Assembly (NCBI GenBank): GCA_003990765.1
Contig: RBNJ01000301.1
Span: 1-33,713, forward strand
Direction of reading: 5' to 3'
Length of the DNA stretch: 33,713 bases
DNA from: Jimgerdemannia flammicorona
Lineage: Eukaryota
The notes beneath the pieces are model-generated. The model saw nothing but the letters and a program-made list of their open reading frames with translations, did no database searches and was not told the origin of the DNA. Positions 2,702 to 33,713 of the stretch are shown here, piece by piece. The stretch's first letter is position 1. Every line of letters starts with the position of its first letter. A program made the position numbers and the translations under genes.

Positions 2702-4880
2702 CTATAAGGTCTCCAAGAACCTCTTCATGCCGATCAACTCCTGTACATCGTCCTCATGCGAAAGGCCGTGATTCTTGTACAATACCAGAGTCGCTCTAAT
2801 GGTGGCAAGAGCCTCCTGCAGTCTTTGACTGTTTCCAGAAATGCGAAAGGAACCAATATAAACAACCCAGTAAAACAAGCGATGGGTGTGACCAAAAGAT
2901 GCAAGAACAGTTGAAACGTACCTGTTGAACAGTAGCGTGCATAACTTGAACATCTCCCGCGCGAGCTCGGGGCTCTGTGAGCCGAATCTCGCGCGGACGA
3001 CGTCGATGGATTTGCGACAGTACGAGACCGACTCACAGAAATTCCCTGCAGAGCAAAGATGTTTCAAAGCGTTAACCTGGCGTTTAGAATATGGCCTGAC
3101 GCTAACTCATGAAATCCATACGCAAAGCAGAGTGACCAACCTTTACGGGCATAAAGCTCCGCAAGTCGATCGTACGTCGCCCCCAAGACGTGCGCGTCTG
3201 CACAATAGAGTTGCTGCTGAATATCAAGACACTTGCGCACAGAATCGATGTTTCCCGATTGTAGGAGACGGTTTGCTTGTGTTTCAGACTGGAGTAATAA
3301 CGGAAAGTTTGTCGATGAGTTTGTTCAGTTGTGGTTTGTAACGATTCCCATAACGGGTGGATCTGGTACTTACTTTAACTCGTCTGGTGAGATCCACGGG
3401 TAATCTACATGCTGGACAGGTTTCATCCGTGGCCGATAGCTTACCTTCGGGACACATGGTTGGGCACTTATAGAACCTGTCCAGCCCATTGGAAAGGCTG
3501 CTTTCAAGCGCGCATGTGATGTGAGCAAAAATTCAGGAGCAAATCCACATAACATATATGACATATACAACATGGCAAACGGTAGAGTAGAGAATTCATA
3601 AAGTACAGGCCGATATACCTTTCCCTACACGCCTCACACCCACAGTCGAAGAGATATTTCTCCCTCAATACCCGTCTCCTCTCCTCGGCATCCATCCTGC
3701 CAACCTGCGGCCCGTAACTCATACATATCGGTTCCCCCACCCGCCCAACCTCTCTCGTCATCACCACCACCAGCTCCCTCGGATCAATGTCGACCCTTCC
3801 CTCTTCCTTACGGGTACCGAATACGACCATGGCGTTCGGCCAACATGCATGGTTCAGCAGGCTCGCGCCGAGGTACACACCCGTCCCGAGCACGACCTCC
3901 CGCCGTTCCTCCATTCCACCCGCCGCGGCGTGGAGCGTGCACTTGATTCCGAAGCCGTTGCAGCGCAGCTGCGCTTGGATCTTGACAAGCGTCGGTTCAA
4001 TCGAGGACGGGAGGCAGAAGGTCGCCGTCAGGAGGATGGCCGTGGTGAGATAAGTAAGGATGGTGTTGGGGGAGTGAAAGGCGAGGTTGTGAATCAGGTT
4101 GGGGATGCCTGGTTGGTTGGCGTATAGACATGCATGGTGAGATGATTTGATTGATGGTTACTTTAATTTTTTTTGCTGCGTGTAAAATGAAACGATTACA
4201 AATGTATCAGGCTCTGCATACTAACCCTGTATCGCGTCGCCGATATCTCCCGGTGTCTCGCCCTGCATCAACTCCTCGACATCACTCGCAGTCTCTTTGG
4301 ACTGTGCGAGTCTCAAATAAGCTTTCAAACATAGCCAGCCGTCCTCGCCAACCAATTCCACCAAGCCATCAAATCCGCAGAAGAACGCGTGATTGTCACC
4401 CGCCCAAGCCGATAGCTCACATTCCCGAGAGCAATAAACCAGAGAGCATCCTCTACACTGGAATCGCGTTCCAATTACGATTTTGCGAAAGCACGTGTCG
4501 CAGAACTGTCCCTGGTACCTCTCGTGAAGTAAGCTAGCGAACGGCAGCTCGTGAAGAACGACAGAACCGGAAGGAGCAGGGCGCGTCGCTTCCAAATGCC
4601 GACCTTCCATTGATTTAGATTCTCTCACTCTTGCAAAGCTCGCGAGTTGGACATCAAGAGAATCGCTGGTAGATCGGCATGAACAAGGTGGGCCAACGTG
4701 AGCAGGGCTCAGTTTTCTTCGGAGACGTATCAGCCTGTTCTGGAAGACAGGTTTCTCCAGGACCCGATGACGAAGGAAATCTCTTTCTTCCAAAGACAGC
4801 GCATGATTGTAGCCTTTATAGTGGGTGTGGAACCATTGCTCAGCGAATTCGGGCGTGGTGAAGTGGGTGGATGTGGACAT
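2702..4880 (-). CDS. SET and MYND domain protein lysine methyltransferase (SMYD-like), multi-exon
   Basis: ATG at 4880. SET-N 'GRHLEATR...VLHELPFA', MYND finger 'CDTC...CRGC..VYCSREC...HAFFC', SET 'LNHACWPN' and 'ICMSYGP', post-SET 'YLFDCGCEAC', then a helical C-terminus ending at stop 2702. Internal exon boundaries were not all resolved. Confidence 0.9.
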
Positions 4881-5021
4881 TTTAGATTTGGAAAGAGGGT
4901 GCCACCCTTTAACCGTCACACTCAAATGATTACGTACCGCATCACCTTATCCATCCAATTTCATCCTTTGCCCCTTCCAACTTCATCCTTGCTCCCCTTC
5001 GACCTTTGCTTGCCATCCAAC

Positions 5022-6083
5022 ATGGTAGACGTCGCCTCTTCTCCGTCCTTCGATAGCATATACAACACCGAACAGAGCCTGTTCTTGACTTATGTCACCA
5101 AGACCCTCCGATCTCGCCTTGACCGACTCGCGCCGGACCAAGTTATTCGCGTCCTCGAGGTCGGTTGTGGCCCTGCGTACTTCGCACCACTGCTGAGCCG
5201 CGAGCTACAGGGGAAAGCGCGCATCGTAGGGATCGATCCGAGTACCGATGACATTAATGCCGCGTTGGAGAGAAGGAAAGATGTTCAAGATGACAATGTT
5301 GAGCTTCGGGTATCTGAGTTCCTGGAGTTTGAAGATCAAGAGAAGTTCGACGTCATACTCTTTACCAAATCCCTTCATCACATCTCACCGTTGGACAAAG
5401 TATGTGGATCCTTTCCGTTATTCACCACTCTCGTGATTTTACATCTTTCTTTTTACTCATGTCCGCCATCCTGTCACATGCAACCTAGGCCGTCGAGCAC
5501 GCCAACTACCTCCTCGCCCCCTCTGGCACGATGATCGTCGAGGAATTGGACTTCAACATCGTGACGGAGGCCACTATGAGTTGGCTCTTCGACCGCGTCG
5601 ACCTAATCTCCAGCGCTGGTCTACTCCGGCCGAGCGAGATCAAGAACGCCAGCCATCACGCTAACCATCACGCCAACCATCACGCAAACCATCACGCCAA
5701 CCATAACTTCAAGACCGGCCAATTCCTCAATCGGACCCTCCCCGTGTTGCAACGGTGGCCAGACTTCCCATCGCTCTCGGAACGGATGACGTTGATAACC
5801 GCCATCTCCAGGGTGTTTGGAGAGGCCAATGTCAGTGTCACGGGGGCGGCGTTCCTTTACCATTTTTTCTTGAAAGCTGGGTAAGTTGTTTTCCTAGGAT
5901 GGTCTTTCTGCAATATAACGTACGATTCCTGATTCTTCAAATCCAAATTTTGAGGTTAGTCTGGAAGATAGCTCCGTTGGTGCTCAAACCTTATCCATTT
6001 TTATGGAGCAAGAAGTCCGAGCGATTAACTCATCATCGATTATTCCGCTCGGTTTCCACGTTGTCGCTAAAAAACGCCAATAA
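5022..6083 (+). CDS. Class I SAM-dependent methyltransferase with His-rich insert
   Basis: Exons 5022-5399, 5489-5880 and 5960-6083 join in frame. Motif I 'VLEVGCGPA', 'IVGIDPS', 'KFDVILFTKSLHHI', 'LLAPSGTMIVEE'. Confidence 0.88.
5654..5707 (+). repeat. 12-bp coding tandem repeat (CATCACGCNAAC) x4.5, encoding (HHAN)n
   Basis: Read directly from the sequence; the four full units differ only at the synonymous third position of the Ala codon. Confidence 0.95.
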
Positions 6084-12237: not shown

Positions 12238-13652
12238 CTAATGCTTCAACTCAGACACGTACGCGTGCTCAAGCGCCTGATCCAAGTCCTTCATCAGATC
12301 CTCCACGTTCTCAATCCCAACGCTGAAACGCACGAGGGTGTCGGTGATGCCAAGCAACGCGCGATCCTCTGTACTGATGGAGCCATGGGTCATGACGGCT
12401 GGGACCTCGATGAGGGACTCGACGCCGCCGAGAGACTCGGCCAAGGTGATGTACTGCAGTTGGCTCAGGAAAGCGTTGACGTTGGCCAGCGTGCCCTTCA
12501 TCCGGAACGAGAGCATTCCCCCGAAGCCTTTCTGCTGACGCTGCGCGAGTTCATGTTGTGGGTGCGAAGGGAGGCCGGGGTAAATCACCTCGTTGATGTA
12601 CCGGTGCTTCTCGAGGAAGCGGGCGATCGTCATGGCGTTTGATGCGTGTGCCTTCATGCGGACTTCGAGGGTCATGAGACCGCGTCTGTGTAATAGACGG
12701 GAATTGTTGTTAATGACGACGTCATAAAGAATACCTTGTAAACAATGAAATACGCGCAAAAAAGGTACACACCTTGCCAAGTAGCAGTCGAAAGGGGATG
12801 GCACGGCGCCGAACGAGTTCTGCATGAACTTAAGCTTGTTGTAGAAGTCCTCGTTGTTGGTGACGGCGATGCCCATCACGACATCGGAATGACCGTTGAT
12901 GTACTTCGTAACGGAATGAATGACGACATCCGCGCCGAGCTCGAGCGGGTTCTGGAAGTACGGACTCAAGAAGGTGTTGTCGACGACGAGCATGGCGCCG
13001 TGGTTGTGAACACGCTTGGCGATGGCGCGGATGTCGACGAGGCGGAGAGTGGGGTTGGTAGGGGTTTCAATCCAGACGAGCTTTGTGTTGGGCTTAAAGT
13101 AGCGCTCGATGTTATTCGGATCGTACATATCTACAAAGTCCGTGCTGATGCCGAACTGACTGGCCACCTTGGTGAAGTAGCGGTAGGTACCGCCGTACAC
13201 GTCGTTCACGGAGATCACGTGCGAGTCCGCACCGAGCGATTGCACAATACTCGCTGTTGTCGCCGAGCCGGAGCTGAAGGCAAGGCCGTACTTGCCCTTC
13301 TCGAGCGCAGCGACGGCCTTCTCGAAGACTTGACGGGTGGGATTGCCCGAGCGGGAGTAGTCGAAGCCCTGGTGATAAGAGGTAGTAGATTCTACGTTAG
13401 CATATACTGTAATGGGCAGGTTGCTACACCGCATCTTTTTCACTTCCGTATTGATATTTTGCCCTAGAACTAGGATGTGATGCTTACCAAATGCTCGCCA
13501 GCAGCAGGCTGCTTGAACGTCGTGGACAGAGATATAGGCGGAATAACGGCGCCTGTGACCTTGTCGGGCTCCTGCCCGGCGTGAACGGCACGAGTACTGA
13601 AGCCGACCTCGGATTGATTGGTGTGCTCAGTGCTGCTGTTTCCCTTTGCCAT
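12238..13652 (-). CDS. CYS3: Cystathionine gamma-lyase (PLP-dependent), with introns
   Basis: 'GAVIPPISLSTTFKQ', 'YSRSGNPTR', 'VWIETPTNPTL', 'VVDNTF', PLP-lysine motif 'HSVTKYINGHSD', 'LAESLGGVESL'. Confidence 0.96.
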
Positions 13653-16999: not shown

Positions 17000-17634
17000 C
17001 TGGTGGTATTAGATTATGTTGTGTGGAAAATGAAGGGAGACGGGCAATACAGCTATTGAAGTCGCATTTTAAAGCGAAAGGAAGTCCATTGATGAGAGCT
17101 GATTGCCATTTACATTATTAAAGGCTCTCACATTGACAACCTGTCGTGAAGTCAATGGGCGTTCTATCATCTGATTACAGATTGCGTATGATAGATTATA
17201 TTTTAGCCTAAAGTCAGTTATTTGTGAAGGAACATGTGCTTGATTCTCTACTGCGAATATATCACATTCCCGACTGAAAATGCATTACTACAAAATATTA
17301 CGTCTGTATAGAGGAACAAAAAACCTGGGTCAAAACACCAGACGTCAGCACAATGACAGTGGCACTGCGCCAGAAACAGCATCTATGGCATCCTCTTTAA
17401 TATATGATTAAAAGGTGTTTGTTCAACAAAATTCTCCGATATATGATGCTTTACATGTACAGTTAATTAAATGAAATGCCCCAAGAAATTTGCCTTGCAT
17501 ACGCATGACGCCTCAAGATGTTATATAATGCAGTATTATCAAAAAAAAAAAAAAAAAAAAAAAAAAATTGGGTTATACTCTGTTCAAAAATACAAGTATC
17601 TGCGCACAACACAACTGACCCCATATCAGGCACC

Positions 17635-21239: not shown

Positions 21240-22120
21240 ATGGACATTAGATGTAGAGAGGAAAACAAAGCGAAGGTTTGGGTCACGTTATTTGGCATCC
21301 CGTGGAAATAACCGCCTTAGGTTAGATCGCTTTTTTCCGCTTACTTCAACCTTTGGGGGATAGGTATAATTCCATAACGGGGGGTCCATTAAAACGCGGA
21401 GTATAAGCCACAGGATGGATTTGTGATACAGGCGTGTTACAGGCGTGTGATGGTAACACCGTCCCTGATTCACACAGACCGCTAGACTGAAATTGGGTAA
21501 CCATACATAACGGACTTCGCCTCCGAGAATTCGCTGCATAACCCGGTTTAATCCTCAAAGCAAGAATCACCCACCGAATTCGCCACATATCTCGAATTTA
21601 GTCCCCGGGACAAGAATTACGCATTATTACCTAGATCTCCGATCAGGATACACTCTCCAATAAAACCAAGAGTTAGGAAATAAGCCTGAACAATAATAGA
21701 CTGCACTGCATATATACCCGTATGCCCACTCCACTCACATAATTACCAAACACCTATCTGCTAATTCGGTATTAGAATTAATCAGCATATATTTTCATAA
21801 AGTTGCGGATAGACATAGATTTTAATGTAGAGTATCAGAATACCATGAGGTTAAAAGAAACAGATAAATGTAAAAAAAGAAAAAGAAAAAGAAACTAAAA
21901 GCAAATACTTTTCATTTGTCACTTATGCCAAATCTACATGTGTTCATATCAGACATAAGAAGTATTTTGGATAAGGAAGAAATTAGAGATCCGTACAATG
22001 AGCTAGGGAAGAAGTCCTCAGAGCCCTCTACTACTAAGTTTCCATTCTCTCCATTATCAGTTTCTGCTCTCTCTGCCTATCACTAATTTTTTATTTCCTC
22101 TACGTTTCCTGTTCAGCATC

Positions 22121-24075
22121 TTAATGACCTTCATCTTGCCCACTAATAACAGGCTCTAATACATTTCTCAAATGTCCAATAAACTTTGTTGCTTTCTCTG
22201 CTAATTCTTCTTCCTCCAGTATATAAAATTGATTTCTTGTTCTCTTAAATAATTTATATATTATATATCAGTTAATGTTTCTCTATATTTTTCTCTTGCT
22301 CTGTTAGTTCAGGCTCAAGAACTCTTACCAAACCATGAGACTAGTAGACCTCCATTCCAGCTTCTTCAAATATTTACTGAAATTTTCTCCATACTTTAGA
22401 TATTAAGATACATATGTATAAGTATTATTATATAGCTCTTCATGAAAGATATAGTAATAGGTCAGTATATAGTGATTGAAAAGCTTACAGTAACATTCAG
22501 AAGCTATGAGGTCTGGTATCTTCTTTCCTTCATATAGCTTTTTTGAAAGTACACTTATCTTCTCAGTAATAAGTTTTTGAATTATAAATAGAAACTTATA
22601 AATTTTAGCAAGAAATTTAAATCTCATATCAGTAATAGAGATCTTCTTAATATGAAGTCAGCAGCAGTCTCTTTGGCAGCTATATTTTTTTTCTTATTAA
22701 GCTTCAGAATCTTGTAGTAAGCTCTTATAATTTAAAAATAAAATTTAAATTTTATCTATATATTATATATATATATTTAAAAAATATATTTAATAAAATA
22801 CTTACTAATGAGACTATGTATAATAGAGGTCTCCCACTTAAGTTCACTATGATATGACTTAAGAGTATTAGTAGATATTATCTGAAAGAAAAGAGATGAA
22901 TGATTTTATATCTAAAGTCTTTACTTTTGAGAGTTTTTGTTATAGTTTCAGTGAATATATTTAGTATTTATCTTAACAGAACAAATTCTAATTATTTCTT
23001 CTATAAGATCTTCATAGCTAGCTTTTATATACTTGTACATTATCTGAATCATCTTGTTTATAATATATATATTTGTATAATATATACAATATAGAGAAGA
23101 ATATCACACTTCTATTTATCTATATAAAGTCTCTGAAAAGTAGTAGTAATACTATTAACTTTTACACTACTTTGATTATAGAGTATATACTGAGAACTTC
23201 AGTATAAAGTAAACAGCTGAATTGTTTTTAATATTTTTGTAACAGTTTTGCTATCTTCTTTATTAATAAAAAAGTAAATACCAATATTTTAGCAACTATA
23301 GCTATTATATAGATAAAGAGTAAATAAGTACTATTTATATTTATTGGTACTATATATAGAGTCAATAAGTATTAATTATCTATAGTGTACCAGATTCTTC
23401 AATTGTTCTAAGCTTACAAAGCAAAAGCCTTTTGAATTCTGAATAGAATACTATTTAACTTAATAATCTTCAGCTATCAGAAATTTTGTAAAGCTCAGAA
23501 TATCTGCCTTTAGATTACTTTCTCCTATAAGATGCAAGATCATCAAACTCATGAGTTTTTGCTTAATATTAGCAATCTCTAGTTACTTTAGATGCTTAAT
23601 ACTAAAGTCTAAATACTCTTTCTTTATTTTTTTCTCTGATAATACTAGTAATTGCTGGAGTTATATAGCTTTTAACTACTTTCTGAGCAATGGTATCTCT
23701 GATGAATTTTGAGTACTTCTATATATCAATCTCATCAATAGAATAATAATGATTAAGAGTATCTTTAAATTTTCCTACTCATATTTGCTATATTATTATA
23801 AACTAAATAATCTTAATTTTGACTTAATAATTAAGAGCTAGTTGTTTTCAAATAGTAGAGTATTTTTCAGAAAGAATATTTTTCTTTTAGTTAGCTGAAG
23901 GTTAAGGTTTAGAGAATCAGCAGACATATGATATCTATTTATCACTATTTTCTTGAGTATTTCTCTCAAATCTTATCTAAAAGTTATTTATAAAAATCTA
24001 CTGATTGTCAAATTTCTAAAGAGAGAGCTCAAGAGACTCTTTAATATTAAAAAATTATTAGTGAGTAAAAGATAT
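22121..24075 (-). mobile_element. Degenerate Mutator-like (MULE) DDE transposase with SWIM zinc finger, heavily transition-mutated
   Basis: The minus strand reads 'R*LILIDSIYSTNKYK*YLFTLYL' (MULE first-Asp motif, D-x-T-H/Y-x-T-N-x-Y), 'CDILLYIVYI' (CxxH remnant), 'TNTLKSYHSELK' (TNxxESxH remnant) and 'ECYC..TYYYIFH' (SWIM remnant). Many in-frame stops; probable start ATG>ATA at 24075. Confidence 0.82.
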
Positions 24076-24191
24076 AATGAAGGTGAGTGATGATGAAAAA
24101 GATAATAAAAGAATATATATTCTCAACTTTGAAAAACAATATATTGCTACTAGGTAAGTTTTAATTATTTTTATTATCAGATATATAGACT

Positions 24192-24276
24192 AAGATATTT
24201 TGATCTTTAAGAGATTTCAACTATCAAGGAATTTTAACCATTAAGAGATTTTGACTATTAAGAGATTTTAACCATT
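24192..24276. repeat. 17-bp tandem repeat x5 (consensus ~AAGAGATTTTRACYATT), probable subterminal repeat of the MULE element
   Basis: Five adjacent 17-mers starting at 24192, 24209, 24226, 24243 and 24260, about 120 bp from the transposase 5' end. Confidence 0.8.
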
Positions 24277-24604
24277 AAGCATTGTTTAAAAAAAAAAAAA
24301 AAAAAAAAAAAAAGTCATTAAGTCTACTAATCATACAACTATACAATCTCTTAAATTATCTTTGAAAGTAATACAAAATCCATTTTTATAATGAATCTAA
24401 GAGAAATAGAAATTTATATAAATTATATATCTCCTTTTATCACTCTAAATATATATATACTATTAATACTAATTAATGATATCTCTTTTACCAACTGAAG
24501 ATACTCTTCACAAACCTAGTAGTTCTCTCACTAATCTTTGAATGGATAATTTAAGCCTATCATACTCATCTCACTACAACAGACACATTTATCACTATTT
24601 TATA

Positions 24605-24609
<5 letters not shown>

Positions 24610-24678
<69 letters not shown>

Positions 24679-24683
24679 CTTTT
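24610..24683. repeat. Long poly(T) tract at the right edge of the AT-rich block (a poly(A) run lies at 24288-24313)
   Basis: About 74 nt, almost all T; CpG-containing sequence resumes shortly after it. Confidence 0.9.
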
Positions 24684-25943
24684 CTAGCTCAGATCTTTCT
24701 CAGAGTTTGTGACTTTATGGTGGCAATGCTCTATGATTTTCAGACGTTATCGATCTTCATGGAACATGTATCTCACAAAGTTTCGCCTGATCCTCAATAG
24801 ATACCTGACGATATGTCGTTTAAACAAGTTGCCAGTATCAATCTCGGTGTCTCCACGTCATTTGTCGCTCTTGATCTTAAGCTGCCTCGTCCGCAGGAGC
24901 ACAAAAGTCTGAATACATTTTGGTGAGATTTTTACTCAAATAAACTGCGTGTATCAATTATGATCTCATTTATAGTATAACCTTGCGGGCTATCACGATG
25001 TTTTTTTTTTTTTTTCATTAGATTTGGGGCGGTACCTCCAGTAGGTAGTCACGCCATATCACGAATGGGCGCTGACTACTTGTCATCTCCAAATCTGCGA
25101 GTCCGCAAGGTGGTAAGTTTCGAGATGTCTACGACACCGTTGGCGCTGCCATATTTCAAGTCGGCCCTTTCCGCCTGCAATAAGCGCCGTGGTCATCACC
25201 ATGTCTCCATTCCAAGGAGCATAGAGCGGGGTGCTCGTAATCTGACGAAAGCCAATGGTTATGTCAGGGCTTAACTAGCGATGAATGTTGGCAAATGGTG
25301 TACGCCAACATCGGTGTCGAGAACTCCGGAATTTGCCATACGCAAGTCGACAAATTAATGCGTGGATTGAGTGCTGGATTTGGCAAAGTCGTGTCTCGCC
25401 GGTATCCTAAATTCTCAAACTAGAAGTATCTCGTTATTTGGGAAAGAAATAATAGACGAAGAACTGTAGCTATTAATACAGGAAGGTAGTTGGTTTTACC
25501 ATATGATTGGTAGAAAATTCTCCTTTTGTAAAAGGTTCTCCCCATGAATGATTGTTCCGATTATGCTCGCTTCGCGCCTGTAACGTAAGGCACGAACAAT
25601 GACTGCTACGGCTAAATGCAAGCTAGGGATACTTCTACAGGCAGACAAACGGCTATTGCAAGGTCGTACAAGCCCCAAACTAGTGGCTCGGCTGCCACCA
25701 GAACCAGCACCATTTGTTGACAAGTTGTATGGAACATACTGTAGTTCAAACTTTCAACACTTGCACGCGATTGTGTGACTGATCTATCCCGCAAAATGCC
25801 TACAGATCTACGCCTTAGAAGGGTGGCCCAAGAGTTTTTTCTGTGCAAGTATAAAAAAAATAGTTTTATTTGTCACATTTATATCAATGCTCTTTGGGTG
25901 GACGTATTGCGCTCCTCGGAGTGCGTTCCTTTTACCGCAAAAC

Positions 25944-31268
<5,325 letters not shown>

Positions 31269-31271
31269 TAC

Positions 31272-31454
31272 GACAATACCCAATTAGGAAATTTCGTGAT
31301 GGGGTTAGGAGTGGGACCTAACAGAGAGTGGATTTACTTAAGAGTGGTTTGTGAGTTATTAAATAGGTTTATTCGCTATTCATGATATTGCTATACTAGG
31401 AGTAGTTGTGTAAAGAGATATTATAGGAAAGTGTTCAGAAATGTTCTTGTGCAT
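31272..31454 (+). repeat. Left copy (A) of a 183-bp inverted repeat
   Basis: Reverse complement of 32584-32766, ungapped, with 31 mismatches that are all transitions (hand count). Confidence 0.95.
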
Positions 31455-31533
31455 CTCTCTCCACTACAATTCACGTTACACACACTTTTCAACACACTTT
31501 CGAAGCATTTATTGGAGAAAAGATACTAAGGCA

Positions 31534-32090
31534 ATATCAACCAGCAAGCAAGCCGACGCGCGTACTAGGTCGGGTGGACCTGGGGCCTTCAACTGGCAGA
31601 CTGTCGGGAGAGGTTATGGTTTGGGGATGGGGTCCTTCGGTGGCTCGAGTGGGCAGGGTGGCTCAGGCAGTGGAAGTGGCACTGGTGGGGGGGCTGGAGG
31701 GAAGCAGGGTAGGAGCTTTGCAGACATGCTGAGGGGTAGGGGCTGGCCATTGGGCACTCGTGGTGGACCAGCGGGAGGAAAGGGGAAGCAGAAGGATAGA
31801 ACCACTGGGGGAGCTGGACCTTCGCTGGGGGGAGGTGGGGGAAGTGGAGGGGTGGCTGGGGGTAGTGGTGGGACTGCTGATGGTGGCGTGATGGCGAATC
31901 TGGAGAAAAAAAGAGATGTGACAGTTGATGGCCAGGGGGGGCAGGGGCTCCCAATATAGAAGGGGGACCTGGCTGATGGTGTAACGGGACTGGCAGTGGC
32001 CCTGTTGCTCAAGAAGTCAATCTCGGAGTTCGCGGCTACCTTGTGCTTCCAGGGCTTGGCGGTGACGGCGAGGATGGTCCTGGGGCTTAT
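31534..32090 (+). other. Gly-rich ORF remnant, possibly the N-terminus of a retroelement ORF1/gag-like protein
   Basis: G-rich frame '(I/M)STSKQADART...GRSFADMLRG...' with one internal TAG (31957-31959), cut off by the direct repeat at 32091. Identity uncertain. Confidence 0.35.
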
Positions 32091-32351
32091 TGCAGTGATA
32101 TGCCAATTCAACTAAGCTGGTCTTAGTTTCTTGAACTTTCTGAAATACGGAAAATCTGAACATTCAGAACTAGTCCGAAAAAGGACTTTAGTTGAGACAT
32201 CAACCTGATCTTGAAATCAATAAGCATAGAGGATATACTCTATATAAAATTGATCCTGACCATAAAAAAACAGTCTTCCAGAATATTCAGAACCTCTAGA
32301 AAATCTTTCCAGAACTACGTAATAGTTACCTTAAAAAGCAACTCTCTTACA
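32091..32351 (+). mobile_element. LTR-like direct repeat, copy 1 (TG...CA)
   Basis: Begins TGCAG and ends TTACA, contains TATATAAAA, and matches 32767-33028. Confidence 0.75.
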
Positions 32352-32583
32352 AATCTATAAATAGCCTAGCCATCATAGTATAGTTAGATTAGCCTTATAT
32401 AATATGACTGTGAACTGACTCAGCAGTTAAATAATCTTTTGATATATTAGATTATACTTATACTATATAACTGTATTCTGACTCAGTAAGATACTAAGTG
32501 TTATATCTATATTCAGTATAGCCTAGATAGCCCCTTACTAATATAAATACTTCCTCTTCCAGACCTCAGAATCTCAGACTTGA

Positions 32584-32766
32584 ATACATAAGAATATTTC
32601 TGAACACTTTCCCACAATACCTCTTCATATAACTACTTTTAGTATAGTAATATTATAAATAGCAAATAAATCTATTTAATAACCTATAAACTACTTTTAA
32701 GTAAATCTACTCTCCATTAAGTTTCACTCCTAACTCTATTATGAAATTTCCTAATTGGGTATTGTC
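32584..32766 (-). repeat. Right copy (A') of the 183-bp inverted repeat
   Basis: Reverse complement of 31272-31454; the more A/T-shifted of the two copies. Confidence 0.95.
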
Positions 32767-33028
32767 TGCAGCAATATATTAATTCAACTAAGCTAGTCTT
32801 AGTTTTTTAAACTTTCTGAAATACAGAAAATCTTAAATATCCAGAATTAGTCCAAAAAAGGACTTTGGTTAAGACATCAACTCAATCTTGAAATCAATAA
32901 GTATAGAGAATATACTCTATATAAAATTAATCTTGATCTTAAGAAAATAATCTTTTAGAATATCTAGAACTTCTAGAAAACTCTTTCAAAACTATGTAAT
33001 AGTTACTTTAACAAGTAACTTTCTTATA
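32767..33028 (+). mobile_element. LTR-like direct repeat, copy 2 (TG...TA; terminal CA mutated)
   Basis: Aligns to 32091-32351 with about 42 transitions, 2 transversions and 1 indel (hand count). Confidence 0.75.
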
Positions 33029-33713
33029 TCTTTACTATTTATCTAGTATAAGCTATTTGATAGAGAGACAATCTGAATATATTTAAAGATAAAAATAGGT
33101 GTTTAGAGAATTAAATCACTAAAGGAATGAACTTTATATAATAATATAAGTAATACTTAATAATATTAAAAATAAGCTAGTCTGGTGAATTTGTCTGACA
33201 GAATAACTTAGTCATCTTGGCTGCACTCAACTGGAACCAAGAGCTGATATGGTAATGTGATCAAGACCCACAGGCTTGAGTAGTGAGGTATTGGGGGTTT
33301 TCTCTCACCTTACATGTAAGTCCTTTACTCACCTCGACTGGGAGAACCAGGCCCTACCCACCATGTTATGCTTTGATGAGGGTTTTTTTTTTACCTGTCA
33401 TTCTCTTTGGAGTGGTAGAGGCTATTCTATTTGGCTTGGGTATAGCCTTATACATATATTGGGTTCTCAGACATGCACTTTCGATCATTGGCATATGGTT
33501 GGGTTTCCTCTGATAGTAGAGAGAGTATAGTATACAGAATGAGATGTGGGTCTAATCGGCCCTACTGCACCTGGCATAGTTGAGCTGCTGGATAATAAAT
33601 AGCTTAGATTAATGAAGGGGCAGTACTTGGTGAGTGGTGGGAGAGGGTTTTGGCCTATATAGTTTTGGTTCCCTTTCAATAAAAATCCGCAGAACATGAG
33701 TCTATTAAAAAAA

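Follow-up and report, generated by a model that had tools for sequence, protein, structure and literature searches.

Probable transposon-restricted, RIP-like G:C to A:T hypermutation in Jimgerdemannia flammicorona (Endogonales)

Can transposon DNA be hypermutated in a manner resembling repeat-induced point mutation (RIP) within a fungus that lies outside the Dikarya? RIP and RIP-like mutagenesis have so far been treated as a trait of Dikarya, and essentially of ascomycetes. The question is raised by positions 31,272 to 33,028 of a 33,713-nt stretch of the Jimgerdemannia flammicorona genome (contig RBNJ01000301.1 of assembly GCA_003990765.1; this whole stretch is called the window below), in which an earlier note, made from the letters alone, had remarked two pairs of repeat copies differing almost exclusively by transitions. 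Our analysis indicates that the window probably carries a transposon-restricted, directed G:C to A:T hypermutation which resembles RIP in its outcome. The term "repeat-induced" applies here in the sense of a restriction to transposon DNA, and not in that of a duplication-triggered, premeiotic process.

Repeat copies separated almost only by transitions

The repeat complex at the right end of the window is composed of the following parts, for which the counts of private changes rest on an assumed polarity:

31272..31454, plus strand: inverted-repeat arm A, 183 nt, GC 35.5%, lightly mutated (6 private GC>AT changes)
31455..32090, no strand assigned: G-rich segment between the mutated repeats, GC 58.6% (recognized by composition and contig depth)
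32091..32350, plus strand: direct copy D1, 260 nt, TG...CA ends, GC 33.8%, lightly mutated (8 private changes)
32351..32583, no strand assigned: repeat segment between D1 and arm B, GC 30% (T/A against C/G of other copies at 11 listed places)
32584..32766, minus strand: inverted-repeat arm B, 183 nt, GC 25.1%, heavily mutated (25 private GC>AT changes)
32767..33027, plus strand: direct copy D2, 261 nt, TG...TA ends, GC 24.1%, heavily mutated (33 private GC>AT changes)
33028..33713, no strand assigned: further high-copy repeat DNA up to the window end (33028-33200, GC 22%; 33201-33713, GC 42.5%, CpG observed/expected 0.17)

A repeat search showed arm A to be 83% complementary to arm B over 183 nt, and the 31 positions at which 31272-31454 differs from the reverse complement of 32584-32766 are all transitions, with no transversions and no indels. 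Between the direct copies (83.9% identity across 261 columns in a self-BLAST), 42 transitions, two transversions (A/T at 32262 and A/C at 32335) and one 1-base indel were counted within the coordinates given above. These recounts agree with the earlier note, apart from the indel, which is added here. Homopolymer matches aside, the self-BLAST of the window returned these two pairs only. Summed over both pairs, 73 transitions thus stand against 2 transversions; the probability of at most 2 transversions among 75 differences is 5e-4 under the 17:3 background ratio of transitions to transversions in unique exons and 5e-11 at a ratio of 2. The GC content declines stepwise in the order A, D1, middle segment, B and D2.

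The direct copies begin with TG and end with CA (D1) or TA (D2), and no 5-bp target-site duplication was seen in the sequence. The CA/TA difference at 32350/33027 reported previously is real, and the accompanying label of long terminal repeat is tentative. Two architectures, one in which an element has the inverted pair for its terminal inverted repeats and one in which a miniature element has the direct pair for its long terminal repeats, were considered and rejected as firm labels, because no target-site duplication was seen and the mutation loads are four-fold apart. These loads being so unequal, a young insertion with the two members of a pair at its two ends is improbable. No Pfam family was found in a six-frame read-through of 31272-33713. 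Within the middle segment, a 40-nt direct repeat (32384-32423 and 32447-32486, 63 nt apart, 80% identical) differs by 3 transitions and 5 transversions, and could have arisen by chance or through an old microduplication.

To polarize the differences, C or G was taken as ancestral at every differing pair site, which gave 72 scorable changes. On this assumption, the cytosines mutated in at least one copy amount to 31 of 48 at CpA, 11 of 16 at CpG, 17 of 39 at CpC and 13 of 60 at CpT; the contrast between CpA (65%) and CpT (22%) is significant (Fisher, p = 1e-5), and the mutated cytosines follow their 3' neighbour in the order CpG ~ CpA > CpC > CpT. Since 61 of the 72 polarized changes lie outside CpG and only 11 within it, the changes exceed CpG decay and do not reduce to CpG context once polarized, as the earlier note had held in pointing to the many CpA>TpA changes. 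The 5' neighbour was without clear effect (ACA 8/11, CCA 10/14, GCA 5/8, TCA 8/15), and a TpCpG-specific motif was absent from the pair changes (TCG 4/5, ACG 3/5, CCG 3/4). That both copies of each pair carry private changes, as claimed previously, holds under the GC>AT polarity (A 6 and B 25; D1 8 and D2 33), with the reservation that this polarity is assumed and the loads are very unequal.

An AID/APOBEC-like cytidine deaminase that edits single-stranded transposon DNA or retroelement cDNA would also produce almost only transitions of the G:C>A:T type, and the raw count in the inverted pair, with G>A on one strand in 26 of 31 changes, could be taken as its trace. However, this strand bias was largely gone after normalization for base content, both strands being mutated (inverted pair, G 26/54 and C 5/17; direct pair, C 26/57 and G 15/39). 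In addition, AID/APOBEC enzymes have a 5'-neighbour motif, whereas the context here follows the 3' neighbour with no clear 5' effect. Such an enzyme is thus a very improbable source of the changes, and the dependence on the 3' neighbour is of the type produced by processes linked to a methyltransferase, among them RIP and the deamination of 5-methylcytosine.

Further copies of the repeats were sought in sequencing runs, two of which contain parts of the window: X1, which behaves like RNA in that its contigs skip GT..AG introns, and X2, labelled a soil metagenome; neither is recorded as RNA. Contigs were aligned to the window at a likeness of at least 80%, and 40 of the 312 difference rows were listed. 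In all nine bins covering 31058-33713, the summed depths ranged from 198 to 1400 in X2 and from 54 to 1600 in X1, except for 3.3 in bin 31654-31951 of the latter, while over the unique DNA left of the repeats X1 reached depths of 0-93 and X2 hardly any. By these depths, 31058-33713 belongs to a high-copy repeat family, and relatives with such repeats seem to be plentiful in the soil sample. Exact 24-nt scans of JGI metagenome contigs for further copies, with two exact patterns, yielded 0 loci each.

All differences between the window and these other copies comprised 201 transitions and 30 transversions in X1 and 202 and 24 in X2. The window carries A/T where others carry G/C at 128 (X1) and 139 (X2) places, with the reverse at 73 and 63; the A/T state is about twice as frequent as the reverse, and therefore the copy in the window is more mutated than the average one. 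From 32400 to 32950, 14 of the listed rows are T>C or A>G, and 8 of them read as CpA>TpA, and in the segment 32351-32583 this applies to 7 of the 11 listed places with T/A against C/G (32400-32552). The other copies carry C/G at 32595, 32720 and 32950, the pair-difference sites with listed rows, in agreement with the polarity; the A of the window at 32950 is replaced by G in 22 X2 contigs. Moreover, X2 contigs diverge from the window behind 32090 and before 32351, indicating that D1 was inserted into a repeat whose other copies lack it.

A dead transposase gene and the lineage of the genome

A second locus provides a direction of change that does not depend on the assumption made for the pairs. 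The features concerned, together with the gene used for placement and control, are:

22104..24745, no strand assigned: CpG-free AT-rich block, GC 24.3% (0 CpG against 38.5 expected; the longest CpG-free gap in the window)
22136..24054, minus strand: degenerate gene for a MULE-type (ZSWIM1/3 RNaseH-like) transposase (frame changes; 32 in-frame stops within aligned columns)
12238..13626, minus strand: cystathionine gamma-lyase (CYS3) open reading frame (placement of the organism; control for the codon test)

The surrounding AT-rich block extends over approximately 3 kb (21650-24745, GC 23-28%). With stops read as X, one minus-strand frame matched the Pfam family MULE (PF10551) at E=3.5e-4 and 21.4 bits, and PF21056 was matched at E=2.3e-3. 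The first score lies below the family's own cut-off of 27.6, which illustrates that homology-based repeat annotation can miss AT-rich relics. A phmmer search against 1.84 billion representatives returned 69 matches at E <= 1e-3, the best being a 602-aa protein (E=1.7e-60). Of eight homologues looked up, seven were ZSWIM1/3 RNaseH-like proteins of Diversispora or Rhizophagus (Glomeromycotina) and the eighth was a JGI/IMG entry; none came from Endogonales. Judged by these similarities, the AT-rich block carries a MULE / ZSWIM1-3 RNaseH-like transposase domain. An alignment of the flanks in purine/pyrimidine space, made for MULE terminal inverted repeats, scored 63, which does not exceed the range of shuffled sequences (mean 54, maximum 73), and the ends of the element are probably eroded. 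The left border of the block is gradual, with sparse CpGs at 21640-22103, and the right one is sharp (24745). Towards the right end lie a 26-nt poly(A) run (24288-24313) and a poly(T) run of about 70 nt with one G (24610-24680), with which shorter homopolymer runs at 17541-17567 and 26799-26825 cross-match.

Homologues were aligned by tblastn, and columns covered by at least 4 homologues with at least 60% agreeing were taken as conserved. The relic is identical to the homologues at 163 of the 302 conserved columns and differs at 139, of which 87 can be derived from a codon of the conserved residue through C>T/G>A changes alone, 10 through T>C/A>G alone and 42 in neither way. The conserved columns contain 14 stops, every one of them at W (8), R (5) or Q (1), and one of these three is the commonest homologue residue at 24 of the 32 stops in aligned columns; for the remaining 8 (F 3, K 2, E 2, L 1), conservation of the column is poor. 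The codons themselves point the same way: TGG was mutated at 8 of 9 Trp columns, CAY became TAY at 6 of 11 His columns, and CGN was kept at none of the 13 conserved Arg columns. At conserved Thr columns, 12 of 14 are still ACN or ATN, with 5 ATA and 1 ATT, and the 5 retained codons are all ACC or ACT. Among the conserved Leu columns still reading CTN or TTN, CTN was kept in 18 of 26. Both strands of the relic were mutated. As read from these codons, the relic gives the GC>AT direction independently of any assumption, with the same order of contexts as the pairs. The same procedure applied to CYS3 yielded 50 differing columns, with 12 forward, 5 reverse and 33 neither, so that the forward share is clearly higher in the relic (p=2.8e-6).

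These data bear on the view that the relic and the repeats merely reflect neutral divergence of natively AT-rich transposons under a high transition bias and plain CpG decay. Glomeromycotina genomes are AT-rich, and it is in that group that the nearest homologues were found; the transition-rich background of the unique exons would fit as well. However, neutral decay towards AT would yield most stops by transversion from K, Y, L and E codons, in contrast to the prevalence of W, R and Q and to the ratio of 87 forward to 10 reverse columns seen here. The scarcity of transversions in the pairs is improbable even at the background ratio of the exons, and the CpA-CpT contrast does not fit either. 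We therefore regard neutral divergence as disfavored and very unlikely. The relic also speaks against deaminase editing, being a DNA transposon without a cDNA stage that was mutated on both strands.

The lineage of the genome can be read from CYS3, an open reading frame of 462 codons that encodes a Cys/Met-metabolism PLP enzyme (Pfam E = 7.6e-143). In a protein search it showed 99% identity to Jimgerdemannia flammicorona and 78% to Endogone sp.; the next matches were Mucorales and other early-diverging fungi at no more than 68%, with the exception of one amphipod row (P0005, 38%). By these identities the organism belongs to Mucoromycota, Mucoromycotina, Endogonales. It is thus the Mucoromycota-like, non-Dikarya fungus that the earlier note had supposed, and not a pezizomycotine ascomycete.

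Restriction to transposon DNA

The single-copy DNA next to the repeat complex provides a natural control:

28902..31271, plus strand: ABC transporter fragment, single-copy control (cut by the repeat complex at about 31269-31271; normal composition)

In 1-kb windows, the CpG observed/expected ratio was 0.91-1.32 in unique DNA, 0.00-0.05 in 22001-24000 and 0.17-0.37 in 32001-33713. Symmetrized odds ratios in the AT-rich repeats were 0.05-0.14 for CpG, 0.79-0.84 for CpA, 0.67-0.93 for CpC, 1.57 for CpT and 0.99-1.10 for TpA, compared to 1.03-1.08, 1.07-1.13, 0.95-0.97, 0.88 and 0.70-0.73, respectively, in unique DNA. Thus, the unique DNA of the window shows no CpG loss and no TpA excess, and does not share the bias. 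The longest CpG-free gap is the AT-rich block and the second is 32318-33335, while the third measures only 193 bp; the two longest gaps coincide with the two transposon regions.

The ABC fragment (Pfam ABC_tran 6.6e-9, ABC_membrane 4e-8) ends where arm A begins, exactly at the cut of its reading frame, and retains a CpG observed/expected ratio of 1.06-1.07. A spliced X1 contig (2231 nt, depth 98) matches it at 29739-31268 over five GT..AG introns and continues for approximately 740 nt beyond 31268 with sequence absent from the window, from which it follows that elsewhere there is an intact, expressed copy or allele of this gene. Relative to this contig, the fragment shows indels of 12, 1, 10, 10 and 10 nt and 14 listed substitutions (12 transitions, 2 transversions). 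In 9 of these the window carries G/C against A/T of the contig and in 3 the reverse, so that the substitutions lean the opposite way and the fragment has not undergone GC>AT mutation. The previous statement that this pseudogene keeps its CpG and decays by deletions is thereby borne out, with five indels and no GC>AT bias. The further claim of a repeat-specific process stands in part: mutation is seen in the transposon regions and not in the genes beside them or in the ABC fragment, but the G-rich segment that lies between the repeats is spared as well.

An artefact of mis-assembly or of deamination in damaged DNA deserves mention, as Endogonales genomes have been assembled from field material, although nothing in the present results points to one. 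However, damage would ignore transposon borders and the 3'-neighbour context, whereas the signature is confined to transposon segments inside one contig. In addition, the junctions are common to independent contigs of the two other runs, both of which show these repeats at high depth. An artefact is thus extremely unlikely.

Not all of the repeat DNA is affected in the same way. The G-rich segment, which is found in soil contigs at 80-86% identity (bin 31654-31951, depth 3.3 in X1 and 198 in X2), has a CpG observed/expected ratio of 0.40 with symmetrized values of 0.66 for TpA and 1.22 for CpA, and the tail at 33201-33713 is high-copy and CpG-poor, yet its GC content is 42.5%. As both have lost CpG without a non-CpG signature, our data suggest two layers, a loss of CpG that affects the repeat DNA as a whole and a heavier, non-CpG hypermutation of certain copies. 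The G-rich segment also shows a GC skew of about +0.3 and a Gly-rich open frame (31414-31959, 181 aa) with no Pfam match.

The first of these layers leads to the main rival explanation, a slow passive decay in which constitutive CpG and non-CpG 5-methylcytosine (5mC) is lost by spontaneous deamination, with no homology sensing and no mutagenic step. CpG is the context most fully erased, with none of 38.5 left in the MULE block and no CGN codon at its conserved Arg columns; CpG is also lost in the repeat parts that lack the non-CpG signature; and the unequal loads of neighbouring copies fit different ages. A decay limited to CpG does not suffice, because a GC content of 24-25% is unreachable in this way from about 45-48%, and 61 of the 72 polarized changes are non-CpG, as are the H>Y, W>stop and T(ACA)>I changes of the relic. 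For passive decay in its wider form, setting the CpA loss of 31/48 against the 2 transversions found over 444 aligned sites gives an approximately 200-fold ratio, with a wide error since only 2 transversions enter it. This is far above the rate of spontaneous 5mC deamination. In the relative Phycomyces, the 5mC of repeats is reported to be mainly in CG, which agrees with passive decay, and to be low in other contexts, which does not (CG 2.2%, CHG 0.3%, CHH 0.5%; PMC7862722). Weighing both sides, we consider passive decay unlikely, although it is the strongest competitor of a directed hypermutation.

Two further regions of the window are recorded for completeness. At 26389-29212 on the minus strand, an intron-rich gene is outlined by a second spliced X1 contig of 1830 nt, with nine listed introns of 70-91 nt and GT..AG ends; one listed joint (27243-27346) has GT..GC ends, and the frame 26294-26920 is without a Pfam family. 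At 3504-5534, minus-strand SET and MYND-finger matches overlap a plus-strand class-I methyltransferase frame (Methyltransf_31, E=1.9e-14), and these are probably neighbouring or overlapping gene models.

Known systems and what the finding would mean

Compared with RIP in Neurospora crassa, the hypermutation described here is alike in consisting almost only of G:C>A:T transitions on both strands, with a 3'-neighbour bias and a strong effect on CpA, and in being confined to repeat or transposon DNA, where it leaves stops in transposase genes and AT-rich, TpA-rich relics. Neurospora RIP requires RID (or DIM-2/DIM-5) and is premeiotic, taking place after fertilization and before karyogamy; its context order is CpA >> CpT > CpG > CpC. 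The dependence on the 3' neighbour is thus shared but the exact hierarchy is not matched, as CpG is hit as hard as CpA here, CpC exceeds CpT, and CpT is spared, and the organism belongs to Mucoromycotina. Pucciniomycotina basidiomycetes show TpCpG repeat hypermutation, and Aspergillus and Penicillium show RIP at CpG and CpA. In these patterns, too, transitions remove cytosines from repeats, and CpG is among the main targets, and the mixture of CpG and CpA in the window comes nearest to the Aspergillus type; however, CpC is also hit here (17/39), and there is no TpCpG motif. A further difference from Neurospora is that the Jimgerdemannia genome still consists of 73% repeats (PMC12543289, S1).

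Outside the Dikarya, a RIP-index signal covering 24.2% of the genome was described for Zoophthora radicans (Entomophthorales), whose authors state caveats and suggest that RIP may act beyond the Dikarya (eLife 2024, PMC11105155). The two cases are alike in concerning 'zygomycete' lineages with transposon-rich genomes. Unlike that report on a member of Zoopagomycota, which as described relies on window-based composition indices, the mutations were polarized and their context resolved here, in one window only.

As regards the enzyme, the passages of two reviews that deal with RID present it as an ascomycete enzyme and do not place it in Mucoromycotina (PMC7862722, PMC13297926). The same sources describe a DNMT1 and a Dim-2-like enzyme in Phycomyces, with 5mC mainly on repeats. 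DIM-2 itself is reported to drive homology-directed C>T mutation in Neurospora alongside RID (bioRxiv 10.1101/115501), and Dim2 to raise the mutation rate of repeats in Zymoseptoria (PMC8016269), so that in both systems C>T mutation results where a DNMT1-like methyltransferase acts on repeats. Because a Dim-2-like enzyme is reported for Phycomyces and DIM-2 for driving C>T mutation in Neurospora, a route of the DIM-2/DNMT1 clade is favored, and by this analogy the lineage is more likely to have this route at its disposal than any other. In such a route, a cytosine methyltransferase of the DNMT1 superfamily would act on silenced repeats, and deamination would then turn the methylated cytosines to T. 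It is conceivable, though we put this forward with some doubt, that Endogonales possess a true genome-defence mutator that recognizes repeated or heterochromatic transposons and, without RID, turns C into T at CpG, CpA and CpC, presumably by an enzyme of the DIM-2/DNMT1 clade. No methylation data for Jimgerdemannia were found in the literature searched.

Several points weigh against a directed, RIP-like hypermutation. The transition bias of the unique exons is itself already high, which weakens the contrast with unique DNA, and a direct comparison of the pairs with these exons (73:2 and 17:3) gives a Fisher p of only 0.06, owing to the small size of the control. For the pair changes, the polarity is an assumption that was checked against other copies at 3 sites only, and the 5 transversions of the 40-nt repeat do not conform. 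The approximately four-fold unequal loads within the pairs are a misfit with one event that hits both copies equally, and the G-rich segment lacks the non-CpG signature despite mutated repeats on both sides. Part of the asymmetry in the relic may be methodological, as the codon method leans slightly forward (12:5 in CYS3) and the forward:reverse ratio differs from that of CYS3 only at p = 0.047. The scope is one 34-kb window with three loci, nothing genome-wide; the evidence for the signature is strong, and that for its generality thin. From the published record, the Jimgerdemannia assembly measures 231 Mb, with 73% repeats and 77,106 repeat matches at 95-100% identity (PMC12543289, S1 and S3), and with so many near-identical repeats any such defence must be weak, old or episodic. 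Evidently, the process has not contained transposons in this fungus. Finally, a kingdom-wide 2025 k-mer screen of 1,239 genomes reports Ascomycota as unique in RIP-like signatures and lists Jimgerdemannia flammicorona as 'no_rip' (n_noncoding 23, n_repeat 0, n_both 0), as it does Endogone sp. (13/0/0; PMC12543289, S14).

In the last case, the label reflects the metric in a mostly-repeat genome and is not evidence of absence. The textbook RIP genome of Leptosphaeria maculans receives the same label, and it is on this ground that we read it so. Its row gives 45/0/0, also with 'no_rip' (PMC12543289, S14). Among the Mucoromycota rows examined there, the counts of non-coding-enriched k-mers are highest in Endogonales (23 and 13, with 0-5 in the others), and TATA is 4.0-fold enriched in the non-coding DNA of Jimgerdemannia (PMC12543289, S13).

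Taken together, the hedged suggestion of the earlier note, a RIP-like or non-CpG methylation/deamination defence, is supported: an ascomycete origin, an equal bias in unique DNA and a reduction of the changes to CpG could each have spoken against it, and none was found, the relic agreeing with the pairs in direction and contexts. The literature searched, which did not extend to Bewick et al. 2019 and the Endogonaceae genome paper, contained no account of RIP-like mutation for Endogonales or Jimgerdemannia. The hypermutation is of a known kind, RIP-like in outcome, but with the hierarchy CpG ~ CpA > CpC > CpT and in a lineage where RID is not expected.

If true, the finding would extend repeat-directed mutagenesis to Mucoromycota, would point to a RID-independent enzyme and would make one ask why a 231-Mb genome with 73% repeats has still expanded. 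Should Endogonales indeed possess the mutator considered above, repeat-directed cytosine mutagenesis would either be older than the Dikarya or have two origins, and it would belong to the DNMT1 superfamily in general instead of being an invention of the ascomycetes.

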